A DNA stretch of 63,473 nucleotides, the filler included, from Collodictyon triciliatum (Eukaryota), in the NCBI GenBank assembly GCA_043381765.1. It is 4 parts of 4 records of this genome, joined end to end, with 100 filler letters (N's around TTAATTAATTAA, not from the genome) between each part and the next. Parts side by side here need not be neighbours in the genome. Positions count along the whole stretch, not along the records: positions 38,926 to 54,643 come from JBHJMP010001522.1; 3 more parts are not named here. One strand, given 5' to 3'. Below, piece after piece: positions 4,289 to 60,491 of this stretch (positions are counted from its first letter, which is position 1; each line of letters begins with the position of its first letter). The notes below the pieces were generated by a model. The model saw nothing but the letters and a program-made list of their open reading frames with translations, was not told the origin of the DNA and ran no database searches. Position numbers and translations under genes: made by a program.

Positions 4289-7200
4289 TTACAAGGTAGT
4301 GAAAGCTGTTGATTGTCGATTGGAAAGGACACGCCGAAGTTCTATTTTCTCGCGTAATAGTTGCTGCAGTGATTGGATGAGGTTGTATTGGCGCTCCAAG
4401 ATTTGTGGGTTTGGGTGTTGCTCCCTGTAAAGCAATTATTTCAATCATAAAAAAAAATTAACAAAATGAACAAAAATAAAAAACGAATAAAACAAATCTC
4501 ATAACAAATACTGAGATGAAAGAGTAAAAAGATTAGTAAAACGTGTCAATTTCATAAGATTGCCAATTCTCTGTTTTTTTTTTCCTGTTCTTTTGTACTA
4601 TGCGTAATAAAGTCGAAAACTTGCATCTTTGAAAGAGACTCTTCAATGCTTTTTAGTTCACGGAGGATAGAATCGAGTCTGGTTTCATCAGATGAGCGGT
4701 CGCGCTCCAGCTGCAAAATTATGTTTTCTTCTCGCAGTTTGCAGAGTTCGCTCTGGGCTATAGTATAAGGTTTTGTATAAGCTTTGATCGGGAGTTGTTC
4801 GATTGATTAAGAATCAAGAACAGTATGCTGCATCATATTTGATTATATCATCATCTCATTTGGCCAGACAAGGTAAGGATGGTCTGTTAGAAACAAATCT
4901 AAAGCCTCTGCATACAACTCCTCCTTATAATAAAATATTAATATGAACCCTTTTCCAATTGGCGGGCATTATCCGAGAGGACGGATTGCATGTGTATCAA
5001 GAATCGGTCACAGGTGGATGACATGTCTGTTGAATTGCATTTGAATTGTTTGGGATAATGGACTAAAGGAATGACATATAAAGGATACTGGGATAATCAG
5101 AAATGATATCGCTTTTTTCCCTTTATTCGATTCAAAGTGAAATGACAACACTTTAAACATTCCGTCCAGAAAATAAAAATCAATAGGAAGAGAAAATTAT
5201 ACCGATGAGCTCTGTGGCACTGTCCCACCTCTTAGAGGAATATGAAGAGGAATTTGTAGGACTATTGTATGATGCAAATTCTTGTCGATGTTGTGTAAAA
5301 TGGCCAAAGGTTGGAATATTATGCGCTCTCAAGAGATTAAAATAGAATAAAATAGAATAAAATAGAATAAAATAGAATAAAATAGAATAAAATAGAATAA
5401 AATAGAATAAAATAGAATAAAATAGAATAAAATAGAATAAAATAGAATACAATAGAATACAATAGAATACAATAGAATACAATAGAATACAATAGAATAC
5501 AATAGAATACAATAGAATAAAAATAGAATACAATAGAATAAAAATAGATCAGAACATACATTAGCTCAACGGTTTGCTTCTTTGATTCCTGCACAATACG
5601 GATGAGGGAGAGATGTTCGATCTCTAGTTTACGATATTCTCGTGTTCGCTCTTCGAGTCTATATAAGTTAATAATATTAAGCTGTTTTAAAAAAAGAACT
5701 AAATGCAAAGGCGACAAAAAGCATGCACCAGTATTCAACACCGTAGTGCATTAGTTTTCCCCCTTATCGGCTATTAGTAAGTTGAAAAATGAGATTACTC
5801 CATAAATAACCGAGATTTTTTATCTTCGGCTTCTTTTCTATAATCAATCATTTCATCCCTCTCGCTCCCGATGTCATCCAAATGCCGTTGCAGTATTTTG
5901 TAATTTTCTTCAAAATCAGAGAGAAAGGCACGAATCATTTGCGAGTTTCTTCCTGACATGTTGAACGTATGCATTCATTAGCTACATGGCGCCTATATGT
6001 TTTTTTTTTCCATAATATATTTTAAAATCAAGTCAAGCCAAGTAAAATAAGATAAAACAACCTTCACGAGAAGATGACAGCGATTTGACAGAATCCTCAA
6101 AAGTTCGAAGATTTCGTTTCACTTCGATTAGAGCTGACTCCTGTGCAAATTTCGATGAATTATATTATAGAACAAAAAAAAATATCATGAGATTAAAGAG
6201 ACCCATTGTACATATAGTTCTTTAATCTTGAATCTTGATAATGCGGATATGTATGAAAGATCGATGCCTCACGATATCACTAAGAAGAGATGACCTCTTG
6301 GCGGTCATTCTGGACAGAAAGTCCTATAATTTGCGATCAGTTTTATTTTTAAACGAAAAATATACAATCAGATCTAAAATTACGATACAAGAATGAGAAT
6401 TAAGTACCGCAAGTTTCTGAATTTGAGTCTCAACAATTCCTCGAGTCGACCTATTTCCAGCGAAAAGGATTATTCAAAAGAAGGCATACCAAACCAAATT
6501 AAGAGCAGCCGAACTGATTTAAATGAATAAGCTGAATAAATACGATATAAGTGACTCTAGGGAGTGCGTATGTGTGGCTGAGAGGAGTCCTTCGATTGTT
6601 GCCCGGAACGATATAAAGTCTAAATCGAAAGCAGCCGATCTTTTGGTTAGCTTTGATAAATTTTCAGAGGTCGTGAATCCGTGGTGGGGTGAATATCCGA
6701 TGGCCCCAAAGCTTGAATCTAAAGCTCTGACAGGGGTGTTTGTGGAAGAACCATAAATCTGAGAATATTTTCCTAGGTCGAGTTCATCTACCAAGTTCCG
6801 AGCTGCATGGAAATCGGGAGTCGAACCAAATGATAAATTCGTGTTCGTTTGCGGCACTTTTTCTGGCGTCTGAACATGATTGGTTGCTTGGTGAGTAAAG
6901 TTGTTGCAGTGATTGAATCGAACGTCACATGGAAATAGGGTATTCAAGTGCGCTTACGCTAAAGTTGACACTGTGGTCGGTGCTTCCGTCTAGTAAATGA
7001 GTTGAATGGTTTGATGTCACAGTTGCGTTACCATCGCGCACCAGACTCACGTCGGGGAGTAATCTCTCCATTTTTTGCAACTGCGATAGCAACTGAGTCT
7101 CTTGCTCCTCTGTTTTCTAGAATGAAAGGGATTATGGACTTCGAATAGCTAATTTGATGTGTTTTGGTAGTTGAGAAGCTTATATTGAATATGAAGCTAC

Positions 7201-38738: not shown

Positions 38739-38777
<39 letters not shown>

Positions 38778-38825
38778 CACCCCCGCTCCGCAACGCCAAC
38801 CTAAAAACTCCAAAAAACCCCTTTT

Positions 38826-39213: not shown

Positions 39214-42200
39214 ATGAAAAGACTTCTCCATTACGTGGCTGAGTGTGGGGCTGTGAAGTGTCTGAAGTACCTGTGCCAGTTAGGCGCAGCGGTTGATGTT
39301 ACATCGGATACAGGAACAACGCCAATTCATCTTGCAGTGGATTCGAATCACATTACATGTGTACAAGAGCTCATTCGGCATCGAGCAGACCTGAATTTAT
39401 CGTTGTTATTATATTCATCGCATCTTGTTTCGTTTTTTTTTTATCTATGAAAATTTCAGAATATATAGGAATATGCAAGAAACTTAATAATGCATTCAAG
39501 TCTGAGAAAATATGATAATACGATATGATGTGAGGGAAATTTATGGAAAATTGGTTGATTCCAATACTATTTCACAACTAAGCTAATAGAAACTACATGT
39601 AAAAGGGACGGCTGGCTGGGCTATGCCACACTTCATTGGGCAGTTCGACAAAGGAATTTGGATATGGTCCGTCTCCTCGTTCGAAGGTTCGATATCGATT
39701 AAAATAGTTCCAGAGAAGAAAGAGGGAGATGAGGAGAAAGTAAAAAAAAAAAGGGTGAGGGGGATGGATTTGGGAGAGGAGTGGGGGCCACCAAAAGGTA
39801 TAATATAAGACAAATAAATGGTTGATTAAGTTTGATGTGTCATATATTATTGACATTTGGGTCTGTCGTAGTGGTGCTGGTATCAACCTTCAAAACAACG
39901 AGGGTAACACCCCGGCGCATATGGCAGCCAAACTGGGAGATCTTCAAATACTCGAACTATTAGTCACAAGGAGGGCCGATGTAATATATATGAATTTTAA
40001 AAAAAAAGTTGTTCAGCGTTTATGATTTTATTCTTTCATCCTTTCATCCTTTCATCCTTTCGTTCTTGCTTCTTTTTAATGTTTTTTCATCGGTATTTGC
40101 TTTTTACGCAAGGAAGAATCAAAGCTACTTGCAACTGTATGAAGAAGCTTTTTTTTTTTTTTTTTGAAAATTACTATTATGCAGCTTAATGTTTTGAACG
40201 ATGCAAATTTGAAGCCGCTGGATATCTCAATCAGGGAAAACCACACAGAATGTACCCAGATACTAAGGACTCCTCCTGCTGCACGCCCCAAGGTGAGTTT
40301 ACATTCTACACGCGCAAATGTCAATAGTTTGATTAAATCAAAAATTAAACCCTTGAGCTCCGTCCCAAGGTATTTGCCAATGTTATGTAGTGTGCATTTT
40401 TTTCAATACAGCTCGCTTCATTTTTTTTCTTTTATTTTATTCTTTGGTTCTGGTGCAGTCTGTGAGAGAAGAAGAGCCTTATCCTTTTCCGAAGAATACT
40501 CCACAATCATTCATTTATGGAGACCCCAAGCCAACTCGACACAATATTGTTTTGCATGACAGTTAATAGAATTATAATTCATTTACCCTACTCTGTATTT
40601 TTTGTTTTATTTAAATGCATTTGCTTATTTTGAAAAAAACTTTTTCCTTTATTCCACATTGAAGGGAAAATATTATGGCTTCCTTTGTGACTCCCTACTC
40701 CAATATATATGTATAACATGGTAGATTGGCATCCATTTTGAAATCACTTTTATTTATGTATTTAAGTCACCAGCGAATACCCCAGTGGAGTCCTTTCTCC
40801 CAATAGACTATCAAGGGCTGCAACTCATGCAACAAGCATTCCGCGCGCGCTGAGCCCGCCTGAGATTGCGCGACTAGAAAGAAGCAACACAACCTGGTCA
40901 AGTACCGGTAGTCTAAGATATAATCCTTCGGCTTTTGAATCTACTTCGTCTGTTTTGTCCTTTTCCACATCTTCTCGGTCGCTTTTATCGGAAAGCCCCA
41001 GCTTGGGTGACGATATCGATTACAAGGCTGAGATGGCAAAGTTTGATGCAATAGTGCATAATTTCTCGAGCAAGCTGAGCTCATGGCAAGATCTGGTCGC
41101 CTATATAATGAAGTAACTATATAAGCACCCATGTGCTCTTTCTTGAATATTTCATCGCTTCGTTTATATGTCTGCTTCCATGAAATAATCAAAATATTAT
41201 TAGAAAAGAGAGAGACACAGATATGTAATCTAAAACTTAAATTTAGACCAGCAGAAAGAGACTCCAAAATACTGTGCGTTTTAGAGAAGGATACTTCATT
41301 GAATGGTATTTACCGGTTTTACTTGAAATGGGAAAAAGATTCTAGGAAGAGTTTGTTACTGCAATCTTTTAAGAGGCTATCAAGGTAAGTGTGCTATACG
41401 TTTACTCTTGTCATATATCTATATGATATATTCTGATGAAAAGCCGCTTCGTTATCCTTGCTTATTTTATTTAATTTAATTGCACCCTCTTCGTCATTTC
41501 TCATCGATGATTTGCGTGGTTTAATTAGCACCACCCCAAATTATCCGATAGGCCTATCAAAAAAGGATATTACAGATCGTAATACGAGTGGTTACCTTGG
41601 AAAATTGAGGTTAAGTGCATTCGAATATACGCAAGATTCAAGTAACGCTGATATAACCCCTCTTGAACTTAACTTGTATATCCTGTCGTATTTAACAGGG
41701 GAAACGGGGCAAAAAATGAATATATTGCTTTTAATGCTGGTATAAATCCTGATCGGAGGTCCTCCGTTGGTCGCTTCAATACCCGCTCCGGCCTAGCAAC
41801 AGTCAAAATGGTTAGATTATCTATTTTCCTGTAACTAATCCGTGCAAAACTTCAAGTCTAAATCCATTTTCTTGGTTGCGCTTTTCTTATCTTGAGCCAA
41901 TATCTGGATTTATTTGTTATCTTTCGCTTTTTTTCTCCATTGTCCTCCACAAAATTGGAAGGAAAAATAAAAAAAATCTTTCGCTTTTCTTCTGTCATAG
42001 TGATTTTTCCTTTTCCTACTCAAATTAAACCTTTATGTAAAAAAAAAAATCACCCCGTAGAGTGACAGCCCAACGAAGAGATATACGGTTTTGTTTATTT
42101 CGTTTCTTTGTTTCTTTGTTTCTTTGTTTCTTTGTTTCTTTGTTTCTTTGTTTCTTTGTTTCTTTGTTTCTTTGTTTCTTTGTTTCTTTGTTTCTTTGTT

Positions 42201-42503
42201 TCTTTGTTTCTTTGTTTCTTTGTTTCTTCGTTTGTTTAAGTTCGAAATGAAAAGGTCGATATAGTCTATCGCCCCTGCATATTTTACGAATATGGACCAC
42301 ACAACAATAACAAGTCATGTGTTTCTTTAGATTACCATTCCCAATCCAGATCTTGCGGACTCAGAGTACATAAGGCTGCAATCTTCTGTAGAATCATCGA
42401 TACCTGGTAAGCTATCTGCCATGCATCGGCCCTTTGGTCTAAATGAATGATGCGGATTTCTATCCCCCTTTAATGAACTTCTCATCTTAAGTCGAGATTG
42501 TTG

Positions 42504-42558
<55 letters not shown>

Positions 42559-43185
42559 ATCCCTTCATTCATTCTGGCCGATTCTATATCAATTATTAAG
42601 TACTCTCTTCTATTGATTATTAGATTGCTAAATTTTCGCTAATATTTATCGTATACTCAGAATCTCCTGACCGGAAGAAAGATAATTCTATGGTAACGTT
42701 TTATTGTACCCAAGGACAAAAAGGTATTATTAACTTGTCAAAATTCATCCTTCTCGTTTACTTGTTGCTATGATATACTTATTTGCTGTTGATTTAAGTT
42801 CACATATGTTTCAAATATTGCACAAACAACTAGTGAGATGTAGTTTCCAGTTTCTGTAATTTCCCTTTCTTTTTTTTCGACGATGATCTAGTTTTACAAC
42901 ATACAATCATACCATTCAAATTTTATCACTTTGCCGCTCTGTCCCCACTTACGCTGCCCTTTGAAATATATAGAGAACGCCAAACCAAATCTCACCATAT
43001 CAGCAAGGACAGCTTTAAGTGCTGAGATACTATTCACATACCCCTTGACCCCTTTCCAGGTAAATCCCTTCTTGTACATATTATGTTATTGCAGATTGAA
43101 ATGTCATCGTTCTCGTTGTTTTTTCAACAGGTATTTTCTGTATGTCTGGCGATCTTCGACTCTTCCTAGAGAAGAGCGTATTTAG
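39214..43185 (+). CDS. Ankyrin-repeat protein, multi-exon, probably 5'-incomplete (contig start); 3' end uncertain
   Basis: LLHYVAECGAVKCLKYL...GTTPIHLAVDSNHITCVQELIRHRADLNL|SDGWLGYATLHWAVRQRNLDMVRLLV|GAGINLQNNEGNTPAHMAAKLGDLQILELLV...|KPLDISIRENHTECTQIL, i.e. about 5 ankyrin repeats followed by low-complexity exons. Confidence 0.75.
42102..42228. repeat. (TTTCTTTG)n octamer repeat, intronic
   Basis: Seen directly. Confidence 0.95.
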
Positions 43186-43310
43186 AGAGAAAGGCTTATT
43201 ATCATCGTAATGGCACAGCCAAATACTCTTCATTCAATCTCCCTTGCGCTTCTATCCCTTCACGTCCCCAACCACCACCCAACCACTCACAATAAACCTC
43301 CCATCCAACA

Positions 43311-43347
43311 TTCGCTGCACTTTGAATCGAATAAAGCAAGAAAAAAA
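43311..43347 (+). mobile_element. Micro-insertion copy 2: ACTTTGAATCGAATAAAG + CAAG-poly(A), flanked by ~17-bp direct repeat
   Basis: Core at 43319-43336; AAACCTCCCATCCAACA before and AAACCTCCCACCCAACA after (one mismatch). Confidence 0.7.
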
Positions 43348-44800
43348 AAACCTCCCACCCAACACACCCCCAAGCCAAACGCCGCGGAAACACACTAAAA
43401 TTTTCCATTTATGGAATATAATTACAATATTTACAAAAAACCTTAATAATGCATCTTTACAACAAATAATCTATAAACTGTCTATAAAATATTTTTATTG
43501 TATAAGTATGCCGATAGCTGCTCAACATGATAAGGGAGTATCTCTTAAATTAAGCTTCAACCCTGCACCGCAAAAATTCACTGAACTTACAACATTCCAG
43601 CCATAATTCCATATGCTTTTTTGTCCCTTCCAGCGCAGTCAATGTGTCCCCTGGCCATTATGGCCGACGCGCGAGGCGTCAGCGGGTTGAAAAGAGCTTC
43701 GGGCTTGAAGGGACGCGGTTCGCGGGTGTAGAAACACATATATACCAGACCACATGCCAAAGGGGTGTATAAAAGCATAAACGGCAAAGTACAAAGCCGC
43801 CAGCTGGGGTTGATAAGCTGGGAACATTCTCTGTCCCTTGTGCGAAGCCTATGGCCGGCGGGGTGGAGAGAAGTCGCACCGTGCGGTGTATTTATTGCGG
43901 CATTGGTCGCCTGGGCGGGTGACAGGAGACTCACATGGTCAAGAGAATGTCCGCAGGCAAAGGGCCGCTACCCCCGCTATCGCCTCGTAGCGGCAGCGCC
44001 TCGCGGTTACTGGCAACTGGCCAGCAGCCCAACCGCACACCGCCACCCCTGTATTCTCCGCAGTGATCAACAACGCGNNNNNNNNNNNNNNNNNNNNNNN
44101 NNNNNNNNNNNNNNNNNNNNNNNNNNNNNNNNNNNNNNNNNNNNNNNNNNNNNNNNNNNNNNNNNNNNNNNNNNNNNNNNNNNNNNNNNNNNNNNNNNNN
44201 NNNNNNNNNNNNNNNNNNNNNNNNNNNNNNNNNNNNNNNNNNNNNNNNNNNNNNNNNNNNNNNNNNNNNNNNNNNNNNNNNNNNNNNNNNNNNNNNNNNN
44301 NNNNNNNNNNNNNNNNNNNNNNNNNNNNNNNNNNNNNNNNNNNNNNNNNNNNNNNNNNNNNNNNNNNNNNNNNNNNNNNNNNNNNNNNNNNNNNNNNNNN
44401 NNNNNNNNNNNNNNNNNNNNNNNNNNNNNNNNNNNNNNNNNNNNNNNNNNNNNNNNNNNNNNNNNNNNNNNNNNNNNNNNNNNNNNNNNNNNNNNNNNNN
44501 NNNNNNNNNNNNNNNNNNNNNNNNNNNNTTCCTACCAAACTGCCTTGTGAATCCCAAAATGCCAGAGCCCAAGCCACTGAGGACGCGGTACAAAACTAAT
44601 TAAAATTGACTGTCAAGCTGTTTTTGTTTGTGTATGTGCCATTGCTTTGCTTTATATTCAAAAGTATTTTTACTTCAAGCGGAAGTGAATATGAATGCTA
44701 ACCTGAGAGGTTTAGTGGACACGCTTTAACTCTTTATGGCCTGTAACTTAATCACCATTGCTCACTTTTTTTTCCGTTGCTGTCAAAATATATATTGCAG

Positions 44801-47491
44801 GCCTACAAGTTCATTGGTTACTACACCAACTGGGCCCAAGTAAGATTCTAATACCACCTAACTATTACAAGGAACAATTACGTTCAATTCATACACAATA
44901 GATAATCGAGACAGAAACGATCAATATGCAGTGTTTTTTTTTTTTATGCTTTTGTACTAAAAACGTCTAGTTATCTGTATGTATCCTATTTCCTAAACTG
45001 AGTGAGCTCTCTTTCTTCTTTTCTTCTCTAGTATCGCCCTTCACCCTACCAGTTCTTCCCCGAGAACATCGATCCTCTGCTCTTCACCCACATTAACTAC
45101 GCCTTCGCCAAGGTGTGTGTATATTTGTCGGGGCCTTGGGCCTACCTCAACATCGTAAAGATATCTGGTCTCTTAGCTATACATACTCAACATTTCCCCT
45201 TATTTCTCGCTAGGTTGAGGATCGCACATGGCAAATCCTTCCCTACGAGTGGAATGATGTCCCCACTATGTACAACCGTATGATGGCGTAAGTCCGACAA
45301 GATATGCTATCAGTTTCCCTCTATTCGACAAACTAAACAATCTACACAACATTGGAAGCCCTACACTTACAGCCTTCTTCCCTAAAGGATAATTTCACTG
45401 CCAATGCTTTTTTTTTTATTATTATTATTATTAAAAACCAACGAACATACACCTTAGCCTGAAGTCTGCGAATCCCAACCTGAAGGTTCTTATTTCTCTC
45501 GGAGGATGGAACTTCAACTACTACCCTGCCACCAAGTACATCTTCTCCAATATGGCTTCCTCATCTTCTTCGCGCTCCACCTTCATCAAGAATTGCATCG
45601 CCTACGCACGGTAATATTAACTGAACTTAAAATATCTATAAAACCAAGATGAGCTGTTTTGGTAAATTATGCAAAGCTTATAAGTTCTATCATCAATAAT
45701 ATTGACAACAGCATGACTATATTTGCCTTATTTCAGCACCTATGGATTTGACGGCGTTGACATCGACTGGGAATACCCAGCCAACCCCAGCCAAGTACGC
45801 ACAATACTCTACCCACTTTTGAATGATTGGAGCAAGAAACGCGTCTTTTGTCTTCATTCAATGATCAACAAGATATAGCATTGCAATTCTCAATATTATA
45901 TCCGAAAAAACGTAGGGTGGATCTCCTCAGGACAAGCAGAACTTTGTCTATCTTCTTAAGGAGTTCAGAACCGCCATTAATAATGAGGCTGTCCCCCCTG
46001 GAAAGGTTCGATTATTTTTTGATTTTATTATTCAAATAAAAGACAACTTAACCCAGATTGCCATATCACTAGAGGAAATAACCATTTGTTTCCTTGAAGT
46101 ATAGCTGAAATGCACTTATTTTGTAACTGAGTTTAATTATTTTTTTTTCATGAGGTGAACATTAATAGCGTGTAATTATAATTTATAGCAACGTCTCCTC
46201 CTCACCATCGCAGCCCCAGCTGGCGAATCCAACATTTACCCTGGATATGACATCCCCAATATCCACAGCTCATGTATGACTCATCCCGATGGAGACCTTG
46301 ATAATTTCAGCGCACTGCTGTTTCATTTCAAACGTTACTTTTTTTTTGTCCAAGAACTTCTCAAATCATACAATGATTGTTGAATAGTGGACTTCATTAA
46401 CCTGATGACCTATGACATGCATGGCGCCTGGGAATCCGTCACCGGAGCAAACACCCCGCTCTATGACCCTTCTTCAAATCTCAACATCGACAATGCTGTT
46501 AACATCTGGGTTAACGGAGTAAGTCTGAATTGATACCCCGTTTCTTAATATGATGGCCATGATTTGGTCTCGAGAAGTTCGTTCTGCATTTAGTATTAAC
46601 TTATATATCAACCTGGGTATTTGTAGGGAACACCTTCAAACAAGGTCGTCCTTGGTTTGGGAACTTATGGCCGTACCTGGACTCTTGGTAAGAACCAGTC
46701 TTTTTCAAAATGGGATATCTGGATTTCTGAATAAGAAATGCAGCACATACGTTCTATTCCATATTTTAAAACATGCCAGGTTATTATATGTTAACCAAAA
46801 TGCTGACTGAGGTGCGATGTTCATTCAATTGTCGTAGCTAACCCATCGAACAATGGTATGGGTGCTCCTGCTGTTGGTGCTGGTTATGCTGGAACCTACA
46901 CCCGCGAAGGAGGCTTCTTGTCATACTACGAGATCGTCTCCATGCTTAACAGCGGAGCAACTCGCAGATACGACACTGTCCGCAAGGTCTTCGCCTCTCT
47001 ATATCATCTCTATTGAAAAAGAACATAGCAGATGCCATATTTTCATTATTTAACTTTATTTACACCAGTCTGAGATTTGTTCATCCAATGGTCTCGTTGC
47101 TCACCACTTAGCATTCAGGTTCCATATGCCTATCTTAACAACCAGTGGGTTTCCTACGACGACGTAGAGTCCATCAATACAAAGGTATGCATACCGCTTG
47201 TTATTATCCAATCAGTACTTATCGTTTGTATCATTCTGACGGTGAATTATATACTATCGACAACAGTGTGATTTCGGGTACTTTATCTCTTGAATTGCTC
47301 TGTCCCTTTTTTTTTTTCTTTTCCTTTTTTTTTTCCCGGTCACTATGACTAAATCTTATGACTAGGTGGATTACCTTCGCTCTCGCAACCTTGGCGGTGC
47401 CATGGTCTGGGCTCTTGACTTGGATGAGTTCTCTCGTGGTGCCTACCCTCTATGCCGTGCTGCATACAGCCGTCTCAATGGCAAGGAGTAA
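44801..47491 (+). CDS. GH18 chitinase (chitotriosidase/AMCase-like catalytic domain), multi-exon; first exon uncertain, near the gap
   Basis: YKFIGYYTNWAQ|YRP...ENIDPLLFTHINYAFAK, LKVLISLGGWNF, intact FDGVDIDWEYP (DxxDxDxE), DFINLMTYDMHGAW, YGRTWTL, GFLSYYEI, QWVSYDDVESI, LGGAMVWALDLD; stop at 47489-47491. Confidence 0.95.
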
Positions 47492-48405
47492 GCACACCCA
47501 TCCATAAACGAAATGACATCTGAAATATTCCACACCGCTCGCACCATTCTTAAACATCTACCTCTTCTCTCTACTTTGATTCCTTTCACATATTCCATGT
47601 ATATAAAATATAATATAATAATTTCTTCTCTATGCAAACCAAACATTATCTCATCTTCATCACGTCTTTTCCTTCCTACTATCGCGGTGTTCCCCGCCAC
47701 CCACGAAATCCGTTCACCAAGGCTATCTGCACCTGAGGTAATTCTAATTCATGGTTTTATTAATTCAACTTGTACATGCAAAGATTCGGCACCCTTGTTG
47801 TCGATATACCTTTCTATTCTCTTATCTTTTGTCCTTTTGATTTACCTGGTTCAAGCAAAATATTCGCCCAGTGTTCTTTACTGCGCGCGAAACCCTCCTT
47901 TAAAACGCCACGCCTCATTTTATCCCCTCTGTAGGAAAACTAAACGCTCAGGGTTGCTGGGAAGTGCCGGGCGTTGTCCTCAGAGCTATGGGGCTGATGA
48001 ATCGCGCAACGTGGTGGACAAAAGGGAAGGCACCTGGCTGTGGCTTCCACAGCTTCTTCTTCTTGCATCTCTGCTGCTGATACCTACTTCATGTTGTTTT
48101 CTCGCAGGGAACAAATCACCACACCTGTCGGCATTCTCCCTCTCTCACAGGCAGCTCAGCTAAACTGACGCACGACCCAAAGCAGCTCTCCCACGCCCTT
48201 CTCGTCAACCCCATGCCTTTATTTCTCACCCTTCTAGAGGGGCCGCCCTTTTGGCTCTGCTGGGCCTGCTACTATACTTTACTGCTGTTGTTGTTTGTCA
48301 TCCGTGTTGGCGCAGTCGGTGGTTCGAATGGATGGCAGCAGCGGCAGAGAAGGAAAAGGAAGGAGCCGGGCATCGGACCATGGGTGAGAGAAGGCAGCCT
48401 CCAGC

Positions 48406-48607
48406 TTAGCCAAGGACGGGCATGCTCATGCTGGACGAGAGTGTGCTGATGTCGTCGTCCTTCCAGAGGCTCGTGATGGTCTTTGTCTGCGTGTAGAACT
48501 GCACGGCCGTCTTTCCTTGGAAGTTCACGTCGCCGATGATGGAGCCACGGGAGCCGGTGAAGGAGAAGAACGGGAGAGGCACTGGGATTGGCACGTTGAC
48601 TCCGACC

Positions 48608-48659
<52 letters not shown>

Positions 48660-51600
48660 AATGGGGAGTGGCGGAGGGCACTTGCCGACTTGATTTGATT
48701 CGAACTCAAACCTGGCCGACATCAACCTCGTGCTGGTACTTGCGGGCTGCGGCGCCGGAGCGTGTAAAGATGGCGGTTCCGTTTCCGTAGGGGTTCTTGT
48801 TGATGAGCGTGATGGCGTCGTCCAGGGTGTTTGCTTTGAGGCAGATCATCACGGGGCCAAACACCTACACATTCGTTGCATCTTAGATTCTATCTTGGAG
48901 AGGAAGATAGTGGATCGAGTAGGTTGCGTAGAAGGCCAGTGGCCGATGCATTGGCGTTGATCCGCGTGGAGAAAACATGATGGAGTCGTATGTCGCGGGT
49001 GCGTACCTCTTCTTTGTAGATCTCCATCTCTGGAGTGACATCTGTGATGATCGTCGGCCCGACAAAGTTTCCGTGGTCGTAGCCGGGAACCCTGATGTTG
49101 CGGCCGTCAAGGAGGATTCGGGCCCCTTCTTTTGCGCTGTTTTCGATCAGGCGGTGGACTCTGTCCTTGGACTTTTGGAGTAGGTTAAAATAACAATTAA
49201 GGTTTGAGAGAAATGAGTAATCTACAACTTAATGTGGTCGGTCTCTTTCGAGCCGAAGATAAATTCTTTGTATAATGGCACGCTATCACATGTCATCTAG
49301 GGTATATCTTGTAAGTAAGTTCTTTCAATATACATCCTTGGAGACCAGAGGGCCCATGTTGGCCTTTGGGTCGGCTGGATTCGTCACCACGAGACGCTTC
49401 GCTCGTTCGACTAGGTCATTGACCCTGCCATGGAAATCAAGAAGAAAAATAAGAATGAATTGAATAAAGGAAAAAAAAAGAAGAAAAAGAGGAATTTATC
49501 AGGTATTTGCTTGTGGAAGACACATACCAAGACTGACTTTCACCGACGAATACGGCAGCAGAGAGTGCCATGCAGCGTTGCCCAGAGGCACCAAAAGCAG
49601 CACCGGTCAATGCGTCCAGAGTTGTCTCACGATTGGCGTCTGGCATGATAGTGGCATGATTTTTTGCTCCTAAATTCGCCTGAGTCGTTGGAGGGAATTT
49701 AAAAAAATTATGCGTTTCAAATCGTTTTTGCGAGTGCCGTTTTATTTTATTTTTTTAATATACATATAAAAGGAATGAATAAATAACCTGGACTCGCTTC
49801 CCATTTTTAGACCCAAGCTCATGAACATATGTTCCAACGCGATTGCCTCCCACAAAAGATATAGCACGAATGTCAGGATGTGTACAAATGAAATCAACAG
49901 AGTCCTAAACCATTTCCATTTTCGATGGTTTATAAATGTCGGATGTAAAAGTTACACGCTCTTTCATTTTATTTTTTTTACGGATGCTTGGGATATTAAG
50001 TTACTTTTTGTCCGTGGATAACGTTGAGCACCCCTGGCGGGAGTCCTGCTTTCAAAGCTAGCTCAGCAAGGAACATAGTAGCTCCAGGGTCGCGTTCGGA
50101 TGGTTTGAGAATAAAAGTATTTCCGCATGCTGTGGCCATCGGGAACCTCATAGCAATTATATGAAAATTAATAAAGTATATTAATTTCTTTAGTCTCTTC
50201 ATGATTATCATTCGGAGAAAAAAATGGATGGCAATCACTTACATAGCCATATATATGAAGGGGTACTTACATCTACGATATTCGAATTAACTCCATGGTA
50301 CGAACAAAAGAACTCACAAAAAGGAGATATCGCATGCAATAGCATGCAGTTAGAATGAAATGAGCACAACATAGAATTCGAGAAACCCATCTAACACATT
50401 ATTTGAGAGTGAATCTTCCATCCTACATAATTTGATGGAATGATATATAAAAACTGACCCAGAGAGGTATCAAAGCTGGGAAGTTAAAAGGGGAAATTCC
50501 AGCACAGACACCCAGTGGTTGTCGATAACTGTATGTATCCATGTTGCGGGAAACTCCTTCAGCAGTCTCACCCATAGTCAATGTCGCCATCGAGCAAGCA
50601 TGCTCAACGACTTCCAAACCACGAAAGACGTCGCCCTTTAGAAGAAGCAAGAAATCAATACCTTCTTGAAAAAAAAATTAAGAAAAAAAGGTATACTCCT
50701 ATTTCATGAAAAAATGAATTAAGAAAGGGGTATATAAGAAAATAAATGGAAGCTGCCTTTATGATTCGATCGGAGAGATTTTTTTCTCCTTTATTCGATT
50801 CAAAGTTTCGATCGGAGAGATTATAATATCTTCATTCAAGAAACATCAGTATGGTGGAAAATAATAACCTCAGCATCGGCTTTAGTTTTACCAAGTTCCT
50901 GAGTGATTAGGCTCGCTATTTTCCCCTGATATAAACAAATATATTGTTGAGATTGGGTCCATGCATATTTCATATACTTTATATATACATATATATCATG
51001 CTACATATATATATATCAAATTTGCGCCATGAACAAGCAGCAACGGAAGGAAATGGAAACCAAATTTTCTCGGATGAGATGCTGGTAGTTGAACATCACG
51101 CGGACTCTGGTCAGTGTGCTGACGTCCTTCCATGTCCGAAAAGCCTCTTTGGCAGCTGAAACAGCAGCGTTCATTTCGTCGTTGGTGGTCAAAGGCACTC
51201 GTGAAACAACTTCTTGTGTAGCCTATAACATTAATATGATCCTTTGTTACCTCTCATCTGTTTTAACCAATCAGTTCAAAAGTGAGAAGATACAGAAGGC
51301 TATAAAACAAAGATGATAAAAGAACAGTTAATTAAAAAAGACAATAAAAAGACAATAAAAAGACAATAAAAAGACAATAAAAAGACAATAAAAAGACAAT
51401 AAAAAGACAATAAAAAGACAATAAAAAGACAATAAAAAGACAATAAAAAAAAAAANNNNNNNNNNNNNNNNNNNNNNNNNNNNNNNNNNNNNNNNNNNNN
51501 NNNNNNNNNNNNNNNNNNNNNNNNNNNNNNNNNNNNNNNNNNNNNNNNNNNNNNNNNNNNNNNNNNNNNNNNNNNNNNNNNNNNNNNNNNNNNNNNNNNN

Positions 51601-52192
51601 NNNNNNNNNNNNNNNNNNNNNNNNNNNNNNNNNNNNNNNNNNNNNNAAAAAAAGACAAAAAAAAAAAAAAAAAAAGACAATAAAAAGACAATAAAAAAGA
51701 CAATAAAAAAGACAATAAAAAAGACAAAAAAAAAAGACTTAAAGAAAAGAAAAACATGGGCCTTGGTTACATACAGGGTTGGTAACGTCGACAAAGTTTT
51801 TTGTCTTTGACTCCACAGTTTGGCCATCGATTAAGAGCTTAACAGTTTGCTAATAAAAAAAAACATTGTTGGTTTTCTATTACCATAATTTTAGTAATAA
51901 CTATATATATTCCCACTGCTTTGCTTTGGCAAACAATAAAATAAAATTCGAGTGTTTTTCGACAGTATTAAACTTATCCCAGACAGAGCTATTCAACAGT
52001 CTCAAGTGGTATAGAAATGATATACAGCAAAACGTCAACATCTCGTGCAAAGCCAAATATAATGCCAATAAATGTAACAAGGAAGGGTTCAAAAATGTTG
52101 ATTCATCATACCGGGCGAGTTGTGGTGGTTACAAGACGGGCAGAGAGTCTCACTGACAGCAGACCAGCTTTGGATGGCTTGAATACAATCAT
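48406..52192 (-). CDS. ALDH6A1: Methylmalonate-semialdehyde dehydrogenase, mitochondrial, multi-exon
   Basis: The first exon looks like a transit peptide ([21 protein letters not shown]). Later motifs: [55 protein letters not shown] (catalytic Cys), [22 protein letters not shown]. Confidence 0.96.
48608..48656. repeat. (CAT)n repeat abutting the last ALDH6A1 3' splice site
   Basis: Seen directly. Confidence 0.95.
50781..50806 (-). mobile_element. Micro-insertion copy 3: ACTTTGAATCGAATAAAG + GAGAAAAA, flanked by perfect 16-bp direct repeat
   Basis: Core at 50789-50806; TTCGATCGGAGAGATT at 50765-50780 and 50807-50822; inside an ALDH6A1 intron. Confidence 0.75.
51334..51740. repeat. (AAAAAGACAAT)n 11-mer array spanning an assembly gap, ALDH6A1 intron
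   Basis: Seen on both sides of the N run. Confidence 0.9.
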
Positions 52193-53853
52193 CTGCAATT
52201 CGTTGACAAGAGCTGTCATAGGGGAGTGTGAGGTTTTTTTATTATCACTCTGTGTGTATCCCTCTGGGGTCGTGCCTCAGAAAGTGACTGCCTTGGTGGA
52301 TCGCCAACGCTAAGCCATTTATTTGCTTCATAATTCGTTTTGCTGTCACCCGTCAAACAAAATTCCGCAAATGTAATAGGGCCGGGATAGGGCTGTGAGC
52401 TATGCAACAGGGGCTTTTCCCTGTGTGTTGGTAGCGATTGCATTCATGACGATCACGGATATACGCAGGCATGTATGTAGAGTACATTGTGATCATTGAG
52501 ATCCTCTGATTGATCTGTGGTGGGTTGTTGATGCCAAACCCACCAGCTTGTCTACCTTTTGGGGACTGGGGAAGATATGGCACGGCACAGATTTCAAAAG
52601 ACACTCTCCAACCTTTTCCAGATGAAGATAACTTGAGCGAAAGCACTCAATGGCAACAAAAGAGGCAATCGTTTTGGTAATTCAACAAAGGAGGGAAAGT
52701 TGCAGAAAATGGAGGCGTTGACTGGCTTCTCTTCGCGGAGACTAAACCCAAGTTGAAACAAGTTTGTAACAAGCAAGCGAATTCGCCCACACGATCAAGA
52801 GCCGATGGGATGATTGTGTCAATCATTTGCTCCATACCATAAGTCCCTGGATATGACAATACTACTATTCGCCGTCTCTACGCCTCAAAAAAGCGAGCAA
52901 ATGGAAAACAAAAGTTTGGGAGAGAAGAGAGTATATTTTTCTTGCACCTAGACGCATGCATTTGGCACGAAGGATAAGCTGCCAACACTCATTTCACGTC
53001 TCGCTTTTTTTTTTTAAAAAAAAAAAACGTCTTCCACCAATCCTCCTTTCATATGGCCTCGTGAACCAAGCGAAAGTTTGGCGCAATTATTACACTTTAA
53101 TGAAAAAAAGAAGGCGCCGAGATAATTTCTTCAAGTAACCATTTAAGCTAGAAGCGTACCACAGACTATCTACGAGAGGATTTATTCACAAGTTCTTTTT
53201 CTTTTAGAACCCCACTTCGCCCTGTTGCTTAGCCTAGCGACAGTCATTCACGTCTCACTTGAAAGACTTGTAACCTCCAAAAAGTCAAAAAAGAAAAAAA
53301 AAAGGCGAGTTTCCCTTAAATGAATGAGATCCAAGAGGCCATACAGTGCGATCTTTTGGAAGCAGAGAATAAGGCGACAGAATTAAAGGTAAAGAGTCCT
53401 TTATCAATCACAAAATCACGACTTTCCCTTCTTCACCTTTGTCGCTTGGAGAAGCTTACAGTCACGTCACGAAAGACTTCTCTTTGACAAAACTTGATTG
53501 AGGCAACCTCCACTAAGGTCCCCCTTCCTCAAAGTTCCTGAAGGCGCTAGCAAATCGGCTTGGCTGTTTGAATCGCGCTGAATACGCCCTTTTAGGCGAT
53601 TCCGAACTTCTCCCCACAACACAATTTTTTTTATGATTCATTTGCCAGTTTTGAGGGACAGGGGGCACTGAAGGCACAAAAAAACTAGCATAGGAGATAT
53701 ACAATTATTATTAATTTTTTTTTGTTCTTTCTTTTTATCGATTCGAAGAGGAGATGAACTGTATGTTAATTTGTTAAAAAAAAAAAACTTTCTTAAAAAA
53801 AGGTATATGAAGAGCACACATACTTTGAGAATAGCAAGCGCACTCGCCGACCA

Positions 53854-54528
53854 ATGAAACGTTGGACACGTTCTGAAGATGAACAGTTGCGTAAGTTGGT
53901 CACAGAGATGGAGTTTACAGCCTTGGCATTGACAGGAGCTGATTCCGGACATACAAAGCAATCGAGCGGCCAAAGTGAGGCAGTAAGTCCATGGCCTGGC
54001 CCATCCAACACAAGGACAGGCGCGATCTTCAAGGAGAGAAAGCAGGAGAATAAAGACCGTGCGTCTTTTCGCTGGAAGGAGATAGCAGCTCGCATGGGCG
54101 GTGAGCGCACACCCGATCAGTACTGCGAAAGGTGGCATCGCTTCCTACGCACGGATATTCGACGAGATGAATGGACCGAGGATGAAGACCGACATTTGGC
54201 CATGGTCATGCAAGCTTATGGCTCCAGAGGATGGAAAACGGTTGTAGCTCACATGAATGGTCGCACAGAACGTCAGTGTCAGTTCAGATGGCATCAGATT
54301 CACAAGAAGCCACCCAGCATGACGTTTCACAATCTCTTTGTCCAGTCTCACACACCGGCTCCTTCCAGCAACCCAGCGTCTCTGTTTCTACCCTTATCCA
54401 CAGAGAACTTCACTTATCCCGAGAAGAGCACCACACTCTCCGAGCAAACGGTCATTAGCCCACCAAAATCTGACGGCCTGAACTCATCCTCGACACAACG
54501 CATGTCCATCAACTGGCTCCTTAATTGA
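53854..54528 (+). CDS. Two-repeat Myb transcription factor, intronless ORF
   Basis: RWTRSEDEQL...RWKEIAARMGGERTPDQYCERWHRFL...EWTEDEDRHL...WKTVVAHMNGRTERQCQFRW, with regularly spaced Trp residues. Confidence 0.88.
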   Translation: MKRWTRSEDEQLRKLVTEMEFTALALTGADSGHTKQSSGQSEAVSPWPGPSNTRTGAIFKERKQENKDRASFRWKEIAARMGGERTPDQYCERWHRFLRTDIRRDEWTEDEDRHLAMVMQAYGSRGWKTVVAHMNGRTERQCQFRWHQIHKKPPSMTFHNLFVQSHTPAPSSNPASLFLPLSTENFTYPEKSTTLSEQTVISPPKSDGLNSSSTQRMSINWLLN

Positions 54529-54604
54529 AACAACCAATTCACATTTGACAAACAAACAAAAACAAAAAAAAAAAAAAAATTTATCTTTTTTTCTCTTTTT
54601 TTTT

Positions 54605-54643
<39 letters not shown>

Positions 54644-54743: not shown

Positions 54744-55358
54744 TCTTCTTCTTTTTCTTCTTCTTTTTCTTCTTCTTCTTTTTCTTCTTTTTCTTCTTTT
54801 TCTTCTTTTTCTTCTTTTTCTTCTTTTTCTTCTTTTTCTTCTTTTGTTATTGTTTCCCATTCCTTTTCTTAAGCCCTTGGGGATGGGTGGGGCGTTCGTT
54901 CGAATGCGGCTTTCATAGAACCAGGTTTGTTAGGCGTAGTTGTTGCTCGTTTTTTCATTCCCCCATATCCGATTAGAGGGTCGCTTCGAGGTTGAAAGAT
55001 TAGTTCATAATGAGTATCTCTCTTGTATCACCCCAGCGTAAGAATGCTGCTGATATATCATATTTACATTAATATTCATTCAGAGGTATAGGTGTTGTAT
55101 CTTAGTGCTGCGATGGGTATAAAAGAAATCGAATGTACTGGGTCGTTTTTAGCTTTAAAAAGTTCAACGTATGTTTACATTATACTGAATATCCATGTGT
55201 GCAATATGTTTATTATGGTGTATTTAATTCACTTGAACATCCTCTTTTCTATGTCTATGAATCCAGAGTATATTTTTTTTATTTCTGTTGGGCTTGTTTC
55301 AATATGGTCCCCTTTTCCTAAACACTATTCTGCGACTCCTTCACTCGAGGAATGACGT

Positions 55359-58300
55359 TAGCCTTCAACCCTGGTCAGGCAATAGCAGTTAGTGTATCCT
55401 GCATTTATAAGTTGGGATATCTTGTCTAGAGTGCGCAAAATATGACAATGCTAACCATTGGAAAGTCGAAGGACAACGAAAGGCTCGGGACTCATGAGAC
55501 ATGGGTCAACGAACCGTAGATGAAATCTCCGAATAATCATGGATAGTATCAGTTTCATTTCCATCCATGCTGCTCAAGCAAAGGTTTTTTAAGAAAAAAA
55601 AGTTCAAAACTACAAGAGAGGGTTCCTGATGCACACGCATTAATCAAGGATAAATCAATTAGGATGTTCCAAGATATTATCTAAGGTGATGACTAACCGA
55701 AATTCTGGCCCAGGCAATTCCTTTGGCCAGCGCTAAATGGGCTAAATTATGTTTCGTTTGGGTTAATACTGTTCGCGAATTTTTGATAGCGGTGCATAAA
55801 ATAAAAATTGAATCTGAATTCAAGTTTTGTTTACAAAATAACCCTTTTCTTTAAAAAAAAAAAATAATAATAATCAAGAAATACACAAATGCAAAAGGAT
55901 GTCTCCCTTTAGATCTCTCTGCACTAAATCTGTCAGGGTCGTATAAGTCTGGGGATTCCCATCTTAAATGAAAGGAGAATAGGCAATTATTAGTGGTCTG
56001 AAAACTTTAAGGGGATGCTTGAGTTATCCGTCATGTTTGAATCAAGACAAAAGAAACGCTACATTTGAGGGTTTCGGTGAATGGAAAAGGGGACGATAGC
56101 TATTTCGACATTTTCTGGGATGGTATATTGCCCTATTTGAAGTGGTTTATCGGTTCTTCGCCCGAGAATTGGAACAGTTGTGTACAGCCGTAGGCTCTAA
56201 ATACATATGCTTTCATGCATGCTTTGTTGTTTTATTGTTTTATTGTTTTATTGTTTTATTGTTTTATTGTTTTATTGTTTTATTGTTTTATTGTTTTATT
56301 GTTTTATTGTTTTATTGTTTTATTGTTTTATTGTTTTATTGTTTTATNNNNNNNNNNNNNNNNNNNNNNNNNNNNNNNNNNNNNNNNNNNNNNNNNNNNN
56401 NNNNNNNNNNNNNNNNNNNNNNNNNNNNNNNNNNNNNNNNNNNNNNNNNNNNNNNNNNNNNNNNNNNNNNNNNNNNNNNNNNNNNNNNNNNNNNNNNNNN
56501 NNNNNNNNNNNNNNNNNNNNNNNNNNNNNNNNNNNNNNNNNNNNNNNNNNNNNNNNNNNNNNNNNNNNNNNNNNNNNNNNNNNNNNNNNNNNNNNNNNNN
56601 NNNNNNNNNNNTTTTTTTTTTTGGTTTTTTTTTTTGGTTTTTTAATAATTTATAATAATAAACATACAAGTAGCTATAATTTCATGTCTTGTGGTTCCTT
56701 CGATTCATTAAATATGTAAACCTCTTTTAAACAATGGTCCAGATATGACATTCCCTTAAGGTCTTCATAGGTGGGCATATCTTTTTCTCCTAAAACTCGG
56801 CGTATCTCCTCGCAAACCTTGGATTCTGGGAATCGTTGAATTTTATTAGTTTTGCACAATATATGTTGCTTTTAAAGGGTCTAACCGACGTCAGGATGTG
56901 TCATAATGTTAAACAGGGCGTATTGGAGGGATGTCGCCGATGTATCGCTGAATTTAATAGGTAACCGTTATTTTAATTGGATATAGCAATCAGTTATGAT
57001 ACATCAGTATGTTATACAACAGCCTCTTACTGCCCTGCAAAAATGAAAGTTATCACTTCATCCATTACATCACTCTCAGATAGCATGTCCCCAGTTTCTC
57101 CATCACGTGCTAATTAATTCTATGTTAGCTTTGTAGAAAACGAATCGATTTCATTGGAAGGTATTAAGAAATAGAAAATTATTCATACATGACAATAATA
57201 TATCTAGAAAGTCCTTTGGAGCTCTTTGAATCGATGCAGACTATTTTCAATATAACGATGGGTCTTTGATTAAAAAGGCGACATAAATTAATGATGGTTT
57301 GATTCAGGGTGATTATATCAAAAAAAAAAAGCGAAAACCTTTCCTGTTAATCCATTTCTTCTGTTTTCGATCATCGATGAGCATATCCCTTTTGGGAATG
57401 TGACGATGAGTCCCTATGTAATTATTATTATTTTTGTTCATAAAATCATACCTCTGATTTTTTTGACTGCTTGTAGATGTCTCCGACCGCTATCAGTCAT
57501 GAACCAAAGTCTTGGGGGAATGTAAGGGTACTTCGTCTTAAGTTTGAAAAAAAATTCATTGAATAAGCTTTTCGTTAACTCCAATGAGGACTTTTGAATA
57601 TGTCTTTCAGTATCTATACTCAATATTAGTATGTTAGTGTCGTTGGCGGCTAGAGAATGATAAAGAAAAGTGCGCACGATATGATATCCTATTGTTTCCA
57701 AAGCCTCTGTCACAGCTTGACAGAATTCAGACTCTTCATTTAACTGTGCATTTGCCTTAAATCCACAAGCACACTGTCATGTAATAAGTGTTAAATATGA
57801 GCAATCAAATAAAATGAAAATGGCCCCATCTAGTAATACTGCTACGAACCTCTGCGATTATGTCGAATGTGCACATAAATAGCCTATTAAAGTGATGGTT
57901 ATATTCAGAAGAATCGAACTTTATGCATAAGTATACTGCCAAGCCCACTTACATAGAACCCACGTCAAATGTTGGGAGGGCACCCGACCCAAGCTTTTCT
58001 TGCGAGAAAATTTCCAGTTTTTCGATAAGTACCTTGACATTCTTGGTCATCACTTTGTAATATTCCTGATATTATATTAATGGAAAGAAAATATTTATGG
58101 AATAATGGTGGTGTCTGTAAGAAAAAAATTCATCATATTGCAATTTATGTGTTGGAAAGTGAGTAAATAGATACTTGAAGGATTTCAAAATGAAATGCAG
58201 GAGTCAAAAGCTTTCTTGATTTTTTCCAATGCATTCCATCAGATGTGATTAACCCTGTAAGTATGCTGTATTTTGGAAAACGTGCCCCACTTTTAGACAT

Positions 58301-59088
58301 AAAAAAGATGTATAATGCCGAACCTTGTCCCAGAAACTCTTGGAAGAATTTTGTTGAGAAAGCCTTTGGCACAGTGTTCTTATATATGTAATGGGCTAGG
58401 TAGGGTTAATGAGCTATTGAGTATGATTCCACACTTACATCAGTATACAAAATTCTCTTCTATAGTGTACTTAAGATTGGCTTGGAAACTTTATAATTAA
58501 ATACTATGCCTGGGTCTGGGTGCAATACTACAACCACTGGAAACGTGGGGGTGACCCAAACTGTTGTCATCGGGCCGATTTGTGTTGCGATTTTGGTCAA
58601 TTCGATCAGAGGTATATATCCAAACTCATTGGCATGGATGTGACTAAAAAAAATATTTATTTCATTAAAAGTAAGAGTGAAAAAAATATAAATATCATCT
58701 AATTGTAGTGATATATCGATATTTTTCCAATTGAAATGAGTTTCTGATATTGCATTACAAAACATGATTATGAATAGGTACCCAATTAATGGCATCAGAG
58801 GAAGTGAAGGCAACTTGCTCAATTCTGTGCATAAGACACAAGACTCATTAAAAAAATGTGTGGACTGACACATTTTCAAATATTTGAGTATACCTTTGTA
58901 ATAAATACGCCTGTGTAAATTATTTGCGTAATGCACCACCAAAACTAAGGACAACACGATTGTATCTGCAATCCAATCGCGGCGAAATAATTTTCTAGCC
59001 ACTTTATGGATTGCATACAATAGAGATGACCCTGTTAAGAAAACAGTGATGCTCAATATTTGACCAAACCTCCTAATCCGTCTAGACT
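55359..59088 (-). CDS. Cytochrome P450, CYP4-clan-like, multi-exon; both termini approximate
   Basis: [40 protein letters not shown] (I-helix), [13 protein letters not shown] (ExxR), [26 protein letters not shown] (heme Cys). Confidence 0.93.
56226..56347. repeat. (TTTTATTG)n octamer array adjoining a gap, P450 intron
   Basis: Seen directly. Confidence 0.93.
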
Positions 59089-60132
59089 AATGGGGAAAAA
59101 TTACTTGATAAAAATCTCATGACTGTCTTTCGCGTTCATCTTAAAGTATGGAAGTGAATATATGGAATTAATGCCAAAGCATGAGGTTCTCGAAAAGATG
59201 GTATATTGGCATCACAAGCAATAATACGAATAGCTTTATACCCGGGTTTCGTCACCAATCTTGATCAGCTCATCTCTGGATATTGGTGGTCTAATATATG
59301 TTATTCAGCTATTAATATAATCATGTAGAATTTAAAAGAAATACGTAGCTTTATTTCTTTAATTTTTCTTGATTGTAGTCTATTATATTCTTTAATTCTA
59401 CTATTTTTACCTTTATCATTATGTTCTCTATGTCGCATAGATTATAAATCGCAAAATATGAAGAAATATGGTTGTCATTACAGGCCGATAGGTTTCTCGC
59501 ATGACGTGTTTTTTTCCCACCAAGCTGGGTCAATTTGTTGATTCAGGGTTCCTGGCTGAATTGCTCTTCTATTAGATAGAGATAAAGTAAGATTGTTGGC
59601 ACGGGCGTCAACAGCTAAGTATGTCATGAATATAAAAAAAAGGGAGAGAAATAAGGTACATAAAAATCAATAAATTGTGGTATTAATACATCTATATTAT
59701 ATTGGTATTAGTACCACATAGATAACAAAAAAAAAATACGCAAATCTTTGCCTTAAAGTTAATCACCAACCCAACATGCTAAAATACGTGAAAGTTTTGT
59801 AAAGTCTATCACTTACAGCAATCCCACAAAGGAGCCTGATCCAAGCAAAAGATAAAACTTTGTGCGAAGAGATAAAGCTTGAGGCATACCGAGTATTTTA
59901 TTTTATTATACTTTGGATGTGCTAACTTTTATGGCAAAGCAATCTCTAGTCCAGCTCCGGGTAGTTGATGCAGCCGTCAACCTACTTGGGAAAGCGTCAT
60001 TGTCGTTGTGAAGTAGACGGATAATTTAATTGATCGAAGAGATTGATTCCCCAAGGTAACCAGCAGAAAGGAAGAATGACAGAGCACCAAAAACAGCGTG
60101 GCTGGACGGCAGGAAGAAAACAGAGAGGATAC

Positions 60133-60173
60133 CCCTTTTCTTGTTCGTTTTTTCCCTTTATTCGATTCAAAGT
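60133..60173 (-). mobile_element. Micro-insertion copy 4: ACTTTGAATCGAATAAAG + GGAAAAAACGAACAAGAAAAGGG, flanked by 7-bp direct repeat
   Basis: Core at 60156-60173; AGGATAC at 60126-60132 and 60174-60180. Confidence 0.65.
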
Positions 60174-60386
60174 AGGATACTTCTTTGAATAGTAGGCTGA
60201 GAGAAATAAACTTTGGTGGCCAAATAGGTGTCTGAAAAACATAATTCGGTTCTTTCGCTGTGCAAAATAAACCTCCAGGCGCGAATAATCGAGACAAGCA
60301 AACCCCACCGCCCGATAAGACGGCACCTTTCACACCCGAGACCCCGAAAGTGTGGGTACAATCATTATCTTGCGCCATTGTTTGGC

Positions 60387-60389
60387 TAT

Positions 60390-60488
<99 letters not shown>

Positions 60489-60491
60489 TTT
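60387..60491. repeat. (TATT)n microsatellite
   Basis: Seen directly. Confidence 0.96.

Follow-up and report, generated by a model that had tools for sequence, protein, structure and literature searches.

How did one identical 18-nt word (ACTTTGAATCGAATAAAG, here called the 18-mer) come to lie at four places in the nuclear DNA of the freshwater eukaryote Collodictyon triciliatum (assembly GCA_043381765.1), each time followed by an A-rich tail and enclosed in a direct repeat of its own? The stretch that we analyzed, called the window, is 63,473 nt long and joins four contigs (1-22044, 22145-38825, 38926-54643, and 54744-63473) through spacers of the form N44-TTAATTAATTAA-N44, so that the copies of the 18-mer are spread over three contigs. 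An initial annotation of this DNA had proposed that the insertions are retroposed spliced-leader RNA ends, with an ultra-short 3' tail of a long interspersed nuclear element (LINE) as the alternative. We find that these micro-insertions are very probably tail-only, dead-on-arrival copies of a LINE, made by target-primed reverse transcription, and not spliced-leader relics. The 18-mer is most likely the conserved 3'-terminal sequence of the LINE just before its A-rich tail, the element being of the endonuclease type, non-long-terminal-repeat, L1-like in architecture, and living in this eukaryote. The feature is real and ordinary in kind, and it comes from an undescribed LINE family. Within this genome, the copy searches covered the window, and six copies (one long metagenome copy, L003, and the short copies) were available for the comparison of 5' ends.

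Anatomy of the insertions

The 18-mer has four exact matches in the window (5121-5138, minus strand; 43319-43336, plus strand; 50789-50806, minus strand; 60156-60173, minus strand). The chance expectation is 0.14 matches, and none of 100 shuffled sequences held four or more. No window match beyond the four exact ones appeared when up to three mismatches were allowed. A possible fifth copy, truncated or diverged, was picked up by blastn and by a script scan. The copies are as follows:

Copy 1, 5100..5145, minus strand: TCATTTC (5145-5139), 18-mer (5138-5121), tail GGAAAAAAGCGATA, TCATTTC (5106-5100).
Copy 2, 43294..43364, plus strand: AAACCTCCCATCCAACA (43294-43310), TTCGCTGC (43311-43318), 18-mer (43319-43336), tail CAAGAAAAAAA, AAACCTCCCACCCAACA (43348-43364).
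Copy 3, 50765..50822, minus strand: AATCTCTCCGATCGAA (50822-50807), 18-mer (50806-50789), tail GAGAAAAA (50788-50781), the same 16-mer again (50780-50765).
Copy 4, 60126..60180, minus strand: GTATCCT (60180-60174), 18-mer (60173-60156), tail GGAAAAAACGAACAAGAAAAGGG, GTATCCT (60132-60126).
Possible copy 5, 49456..49479, plus strand: TGAATTGAATAAAG + G + A9, 95.8% identical over 24 nt by blastn.

The short units measure 26-41 bp and, over 62.3 kb of sequence, occur about once every 12-15 kb. The direct repeats around copies 1 to 4 are 7, 17 (16 of 17 identical), 16, and 7 bp long and have the form of variable-length target-site duplications; the exact 16-bp repeat of copy 3 was also recovered by script. 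Copies 1, 3, and 4 adjoin their own repeat at the first A of the 18-mer. Copy 5 starts at base 5 of the 18-mer and carries a single C>T change, and its duplication is ambiguous because its flanks are A-rich.

Much of this had been described correctly in the initial annotation. The four base-perfect 18-mers on three contigs, the four repeat lengths (the one given as about 17 bp being 17 bp with one mismatch), and the common start of three copies at the first A against the repeat all hold, as does the view that variable target-site duplications together with an A-rich 3' end indicate target-primed reverse transcription of the LINE type. Each copy does have an A-rich tail, but the tails quoted for copies 1 and 4 were too short, as they run on through GCGATA and AAAAGGG, respectively. 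A further correction concerns copy 2, which has eight inserted bases (TTCGCTGC) upstream of the 18-mer.

We compared the flanking repeats with those at random window positions (n = 2898) in a deliberately lax scan, which found an exact flanking repeat of at least 7 bp at 6.6% of positions and of at least 15 bp at 1.9%. The 7-bp duplications are individually weak, though they adjoin the element exactly, and the weight rests on the long repeats. That weakness is what could be said for a non-mobile origin, whether as an assembly or adapter artefact, as chance repeats, or as templated filler from double-strand-break repair. We regard such an origin as hardly credible, given the 16- and 17-bp duplications around two of the copies, the failure of any shuffle to reach four matches, and the occurrence of the 18-mer plus a similar tail both in L003, a metagenome contig of independent origin, and in an RNA contig from run X2. 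Furthermore, we know of no filler DNA that yields target-site duplications plus A tails.

A long copy places the 18-mer at the 3' end of a LINE

When metagenome contigs were scanned with the 18-mer, 23 exact matches came up, which is about the chance level for 18 bases in such a collection. One of the 23, L003, has the context of an element; the other 22 are chance-like or lie in unrelated genes. Read on its minus strand, L003 runs ...CCTCGCTAC + 18-mer + G + A10 and then passes into an AT-rich flank (101 nt, 28.7% GC). The sequence directly before the 18-mer is ...CTCGCTAC, and the 1027 nt upstream have a GC content of 51.5%. This upstream part holds an open reading frame (ORF) of 202 amino acids that matches the C-terminus of a LINE ORF2 with a zf-RVT domain (Pfam; E 1.5e-7; 32.4 bits, the curated cut-off being 27.5). 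The frame shifts once and then stops 74 nt before the 18-mer, leaving a 3' untranslated region (UTR) of 74 nt. A longer copy with extended LINE sequence upstream, which the initial annotation had named beforehand as evidence against a leader, is therefore present in the form of L003, with its ORF2 and 3' UTR.

An exhaustive HMMER library search with the L003 protein returned 14 relatives; an earlier search for homologues in longer proteins, with 403 candidates, had yielded no scored match. Four of the relatives are full length (P0129-P0132; 1226-1275 amino acids, 25-38% identity over the matched part by tblastn). All four carry Exo_endo_phos and RVT_1, and three of them also carry zf-RVT. The reverse transcriptase and endonuclease regions of L003 itself lie beyond the end of the contig, so these domains are seen only in P0129-P0132. 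Judged from these relatives, the predicted domain order (endonuclease, reverse transcriptase, zf-RVT) is that of an L1-like LINE.

No repeat of ...CTCGCTAC follows the tail of L003, so that the 18-mer there marks the terminus of the LINE itself, as opposed to a nested micro-insertion. Copy 2 provides a second link. Its eight extra bases TTCGCTGC (T TCGCTGC) compare with C TCGCTAC at the same place in L003, so that six of the last seven match, for which the chance at a fixed position is 0.0013. In agreement, blastn aligned L003rc 1021-1059 with window positions 43312-43350 at 89.7% identity, the alignment running 7 nt upstream of the 18-mer. Since copy 2 shares upstream bases with L003, it is best seen as a truncated copy, a little longer than the others, from a sister subfamily. 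A leader retrocopy would have nothing of its source RNA upstream of the leader; copy 2 and L003 have shared bases there, and therefore they do not have the form of leader retrocopies. Taken together, the copies display ORF2 sequence, an A-rich tail followed by target DNA, variable duplications, and a common 3' end with differing 5' ends. Through L003 and copy 2, the LINE 3' tail that had been listed as the alternative becomes the better reading.

We also searched other collections. The 18-mer had 20 matches in the genome-contig collection, all in bacterial contexts and without an A tail, and none in viral contigs. When genome contigs were searched for loci related to the L003 ORF, 130 pattern stretches matched and none was confirmed.

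Tail sequences and the spliced-leader reading

The sequence that follows the 18-mer varies, but it varies in a restricted way. A G and then a run of A's come directly after the 18-mer in six of the seven copies seen. The tail GG+A6 is found in copies 1 and 4, GAG+A7 in copy 3 and in an X2 RNA contig from another locus, and CAAG in three tails, those of copy 2, copy 4, and a related LINE in the window. Because a G and an A run follow ...AAAG in six of seven copies, the element's own tail fits better than unrelated 5' UTRs, which the initial annotation had suggested for this part and with which the recurrence of identical tails is also hard to square. The variable bases after ...AAAG (G, GG, GAG, or CAAG plus an A run) would then be the partly templated, A-rich, CAAG-interrupted tail of the element and not mRNA.

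The proposal that mRNA 5' ends were the source from which an 18-nt spliced leader was copied deserves a fuller account. It would have a trans-spliced leader, or a free oligoadenylated 5' exon, copied by the LINE enzyme up to its capped start, with L003 and copy 2 as chimeras, formed by an enzyme that reached the end of the leader and then switched to the 3' end of a LINE RNA. If this were true, trans-splicing in this freshwater eukaryote would have been revealed from genomic scars alone. The fixed 5' start in three of the four exact copies and the divergence right after ...AAAG are what such a leader would give, and the X2 RNA contig, in which the 18-mer is followed by GAGAAAAAAAT and then GGCGATGC..., is compatible with a 5' UTR and an ATG. 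However, TCGCT[G/A]C stands upstream of the 18-mer in both copy 2 and L003, so that the enzyme would have had to land on the identical LINE position twice, each time independently, and a diverged form of the motif is found at the related LINE's own 3' end. The G plus A run in six of seven copies and the recurring identical tails also argue against it. We therefore consider a leader very improbable, and the claim in the initial annotation is unsupported, with LINE sequence upstream of the 18-mer in L003 and copy 2.

A leader gene would be expected to show as the 18-mer followed by a GT donor and an Sm site. GT follows the 18-mer in none of the four window copies, and the GT-followed cases among 43 matches outside the window belong to bacterial-gene families or to an array in L004/L016 (one sequence, 99.9% alike). 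There, the 18-mer + GT sits inside an array of five TTTGAATC motifs: positions 555-911 of L004, an AT-rich and almost ORF-free metagenome contig, hold the five motifs in 340 nt. In one of these motifs the 18-mer is complete; GT comes directly after it, and GATTTTAGG lies about 75 nt farther along. We rejected L004/L016 as a leader gene, judging it, without a formal test, to be an unrelated motif array with no other likeness to the window. A search of a literature library for the 18-mer and its parts (as DNA, as RNA, and as reverse complement) gave no match, which also counts against a leader.

Some observations do weigh against the LINE reading. The link to a LINE depends on a single long copy from a metagenome, L003, and on 7-8 bases in copy 2, and the window contains no full-length element with an 18-mer tail. 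Three of the five short copies start at the identical base, where random 5' truncation predicts otherwise, although the sample is small; we found no cause for this common start, and the copies have no microhomology to the target in common. Lastly, the X2 contig could be read as leader, short 5' UTR, and ATG.

5' ends and a possible mechanism

Measured from the 18-mer, the copies begin at a series of positions: -1027 or beyond in L003, -8 in copy 2, +1 in copies 1, 3, and 4, and +5 in copy 5. We agree with the initial annotation that the common start of three copies is a poor fit to random truncation. The copying steps can be outlined by analogy with what is established for endonuclease-type LINEs. 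The LINE endonuclease would nick the target, and the nicked strand would prime on the A-rich tail of the LINE RNA. The enzyme would then copy the last 14 to 26 nt only before it stops or switches to the target, and repair of the staggered break would leave the 7-17 bp duplication. As to why base 1 is the preferred stop, our guess is either that a terminal RNA segment, bound and protected by the enzyme, survives decay, or that the enzyme releases the template on leaving its recognition segment. If the sharp 18-nt 5' end is confirmed genome-wide, it would be of wider interest as a mark of the enzyme's template release point or of the size of the protected RNA segment.

A hairpin was considered as the cause of the fixed 5' end but is not supported, as the 18-mer with its tail folds no better than shuffled sequence (-0.3 kcal/mol; 119 of 200 shuffles fold as well). 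The z-scores for folding of the L003 3' end and of the window LINE end are 0.05 and 0.08, so neither shows a conserved terminal stem-loop. Rfam at gathering thresholds gave no match to a ribozyme or any other family in the window or in L003.

The common start also raises the idea of a discrete, non-autonomous micro-retroposon, in which an 18-nt unit plus tail has its own source RNA (e.g., a processed or internally initiated LINE 3' fragment) and borrows the LINE enzyme. Three copies with an identical 5' end, the identity of the four exact copies over 18 of 18 bases, and the density of the units in the window speak for it, and the start of the 18-mer in L003 (CTAC, then ACTTT) resembles an initiator-like start site when compared by eye with the consensus. 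However, copy 2 (-8) and copy 5 (+5) begin elsewhere, neither a source gene nor a promoter was seen, and the spike at +1 is a small-sample observation from five short copies. An 18-nt RNA would, to our knowledge, be far shorter than any described short interspersed nuclear element (SINE). The window yielded no tRNA genes, in addition to no Rfam matches, and the 26-41 bp units show no head with an internal promoter derived from tRNA, 5S RNA, or 7SL RNA. A separate micro-retroposon is thus improbable in our view. For a processed 18-nt LINE 3' fragment as such, there is perhaps a small chance, and it would be the shortest retroposon family yet seen.

A related LINE fragment in the window

The window contains one further piece of a LINE, related to L003:

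LINE fragment, 19483..20116, plus strand: 5'-truncated related LINE copy with the ORF2 C-terminus (cysteine/histidine motif), a 3' UTR of about 185 nt, and the end ...AAAACTTGAAGAATAAAAAACAAG.

It matches L003 by tblastx (E 1e-21) and the relative P0127 by tblastn (E 1e-38), and its GC content is 0.48 against 0.39 for the window. When the two 3' ends are aligned, the sequence TTGAA--GAATAAA in the fragment resembles the 18-mer at the homologous place and is followed by A-rich sequence and CAAG. Among 5000 random 41-nt windows, 0.56% score as high as this tail likeness (18). A search of the window with 13 LINE relatives by tblastn detected nothing but this fragment (19483-19901). Tail-only copies of this second LINE were sought with ACTTGAAGAATAAA at up to two mismatches in the window; there were seven matches, none convincing.

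The fragment has one frameshift near 19695-19701, at an A run (19692-19705). Compared with the uninterrupted protein P0121, L003 also changes frame at the corresponding place. The paired frame changes could reflect decay in both copies or a programmed shift. A (GAAAG)x40 repeat at 19280-19478 lies immediately upstream of the fragment. Additionally, ACTTTTAGAATAAAAAAAA at 21921-21939 (minus strand) may represent a tail-only insertion from another LINE subfamily; no clear duplication flanks it.

Copies in introns and the RNA contigs

RNA contigs from four public runs bridge GT..AG introns of 100-200 nt in the window, and poly(A) ends are present; stretches without contig cover are uninformative. 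Copy 5 lies within the intron 49424-49526, and the joint 49423->49527 is spliced in contigs of X1 and X2. Around copy 3, RNA contig pieces match 50459-50634 and 51060-51222, with 57 contig letters between them. An exon at 50869-50925 and a GT donor at 50868 were read by eye near copy 3, and there are Aldedh Pfam matches. Copy 3 would thus lie in an aldehyde dehydrogenase gene, in sense orientation and 46 nt into an intron of 234 nt, a placement that we infer because the exon and the donor were read by eye.

The RNA contigs have loose ends at 44565 (plus-strand gene) and 51222 (aldehyde dehydrogenase gene), and the 5' ends of both genes run off the stretch. The 30-letter loose end of X2 had no match in the window. 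The X2 contig from another locus, cited above, bears on the downstream side of the 18-mer only. In the bin 50658-50884, which is mostly intron, the summed RNA-contig depth is 116 (X1) and 164 (X2), against 5-10 in the neighboring bins. Such depth could stem either from LINE 3' ends or from a single deeply covered mRNA that contains the 18-mer.

Tail-only copies of this kind matter for annotation. At 26-41 bp, they escape ordinary repeat masking despite their density here, and they sit in introns in sense orientation with an AATAAA word. The main meaning of the present analysis is a correction, in that the apparent spliced-leader scars are very probably the tail of a LINE family of this intron-rich eukaryote.

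Comparison with known systems

In several respects, the insertions are like dead-on-arrival copies of L1-like LINEs. They have the A-rich tail, the variable duplications of 7-17 bp, and the series of 5' ends, and the L003 ORF2 C-terminus has zf-RVT, with relatives that combine Exo_endo_phos, RVT_1, and zf-RVT. They differ from truncated L1-like copies in being only 26-41 bp long, with three of five stopping at one position. The tail is different too, as its A run is interrupted by G and CAAG; the family is called L1-like on the basis of its architecture.

In stringent-type LINEs such as eel UnaL2 and zebrafish ZfL2, the enzyme reportedly recognizes a conserved 3' tail common to partner SINEs (PMC1636434, PMC4176376). 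The likeness to these elements lies in a short terminal word before the tail that is kept in every copy, and the related LINE in the window has a similar motif. However, the tails of UnaL2 and ZfL2 reportedly act via a stem-loop, whereas here the hairpin is at the level of shuffled sequence and recognition by the enzyme would be a supposition.

Dinoflagellate retrogenes reportedly carry relict spliced leaders (DinoSL; PMC6050394, PMC5585692). Both cases involve a short invariant word scattered through a genome by reverse transcription. In the dinoflagellate case, the 22-nt leader reportedly heads a retroposed gene body, whereas here there is an A-rich tail only, and LINE sequence lies upstream in two copies.

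Chimeric U6/L1 retrocopies reportedly arise by joining or template switching (PMC6789731). If the 18-mer were a separate small RNA, L003 and copy 2 would be modeled on these chimeras. In such chimeras, the small RNA reportedly lies 5' of the L1 part. In contrast, the 18-mer here lies 3' of the LINE part beside the tail, as expected for the LINE's own end.

Other features of the window

The window is eukaryotic, nuclear sequence with a GC content of 38.8%. Pfam domains were recognized in its exons for ArfGap, VIT/VWA, protein kinase, Mis12, ankyrin, aldehyde dehydrogenase, Myb, and Romo1. The protein relatives are distant; the VIT-VWA protein has about 30% identity with its best named relatives and 39% with its best transcriptome match. 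Microsatellites are very abundant throughout (1-63473), with 33 tandem repeats recorded, of which several span 100-700 bp. From the first base of contig 2, the 7-mer GCTTTAT forms an array of about 101 copies (22145-22852), which may be a chromosome-end repeat or a plain microsatellite.

The plus-strand gene at 44565-48181 has a micro-exon of 13 nt, CTATCTGCACCTG, at 47723-47735. RNA contigs of X1, X2, and X3 carry its 13 letters between 47488 and 47933, and the word is unique in the window, falling within that interval. The same gene is interrupted by 13 or more additional GT..AG introns, which are 100-200 nt long.

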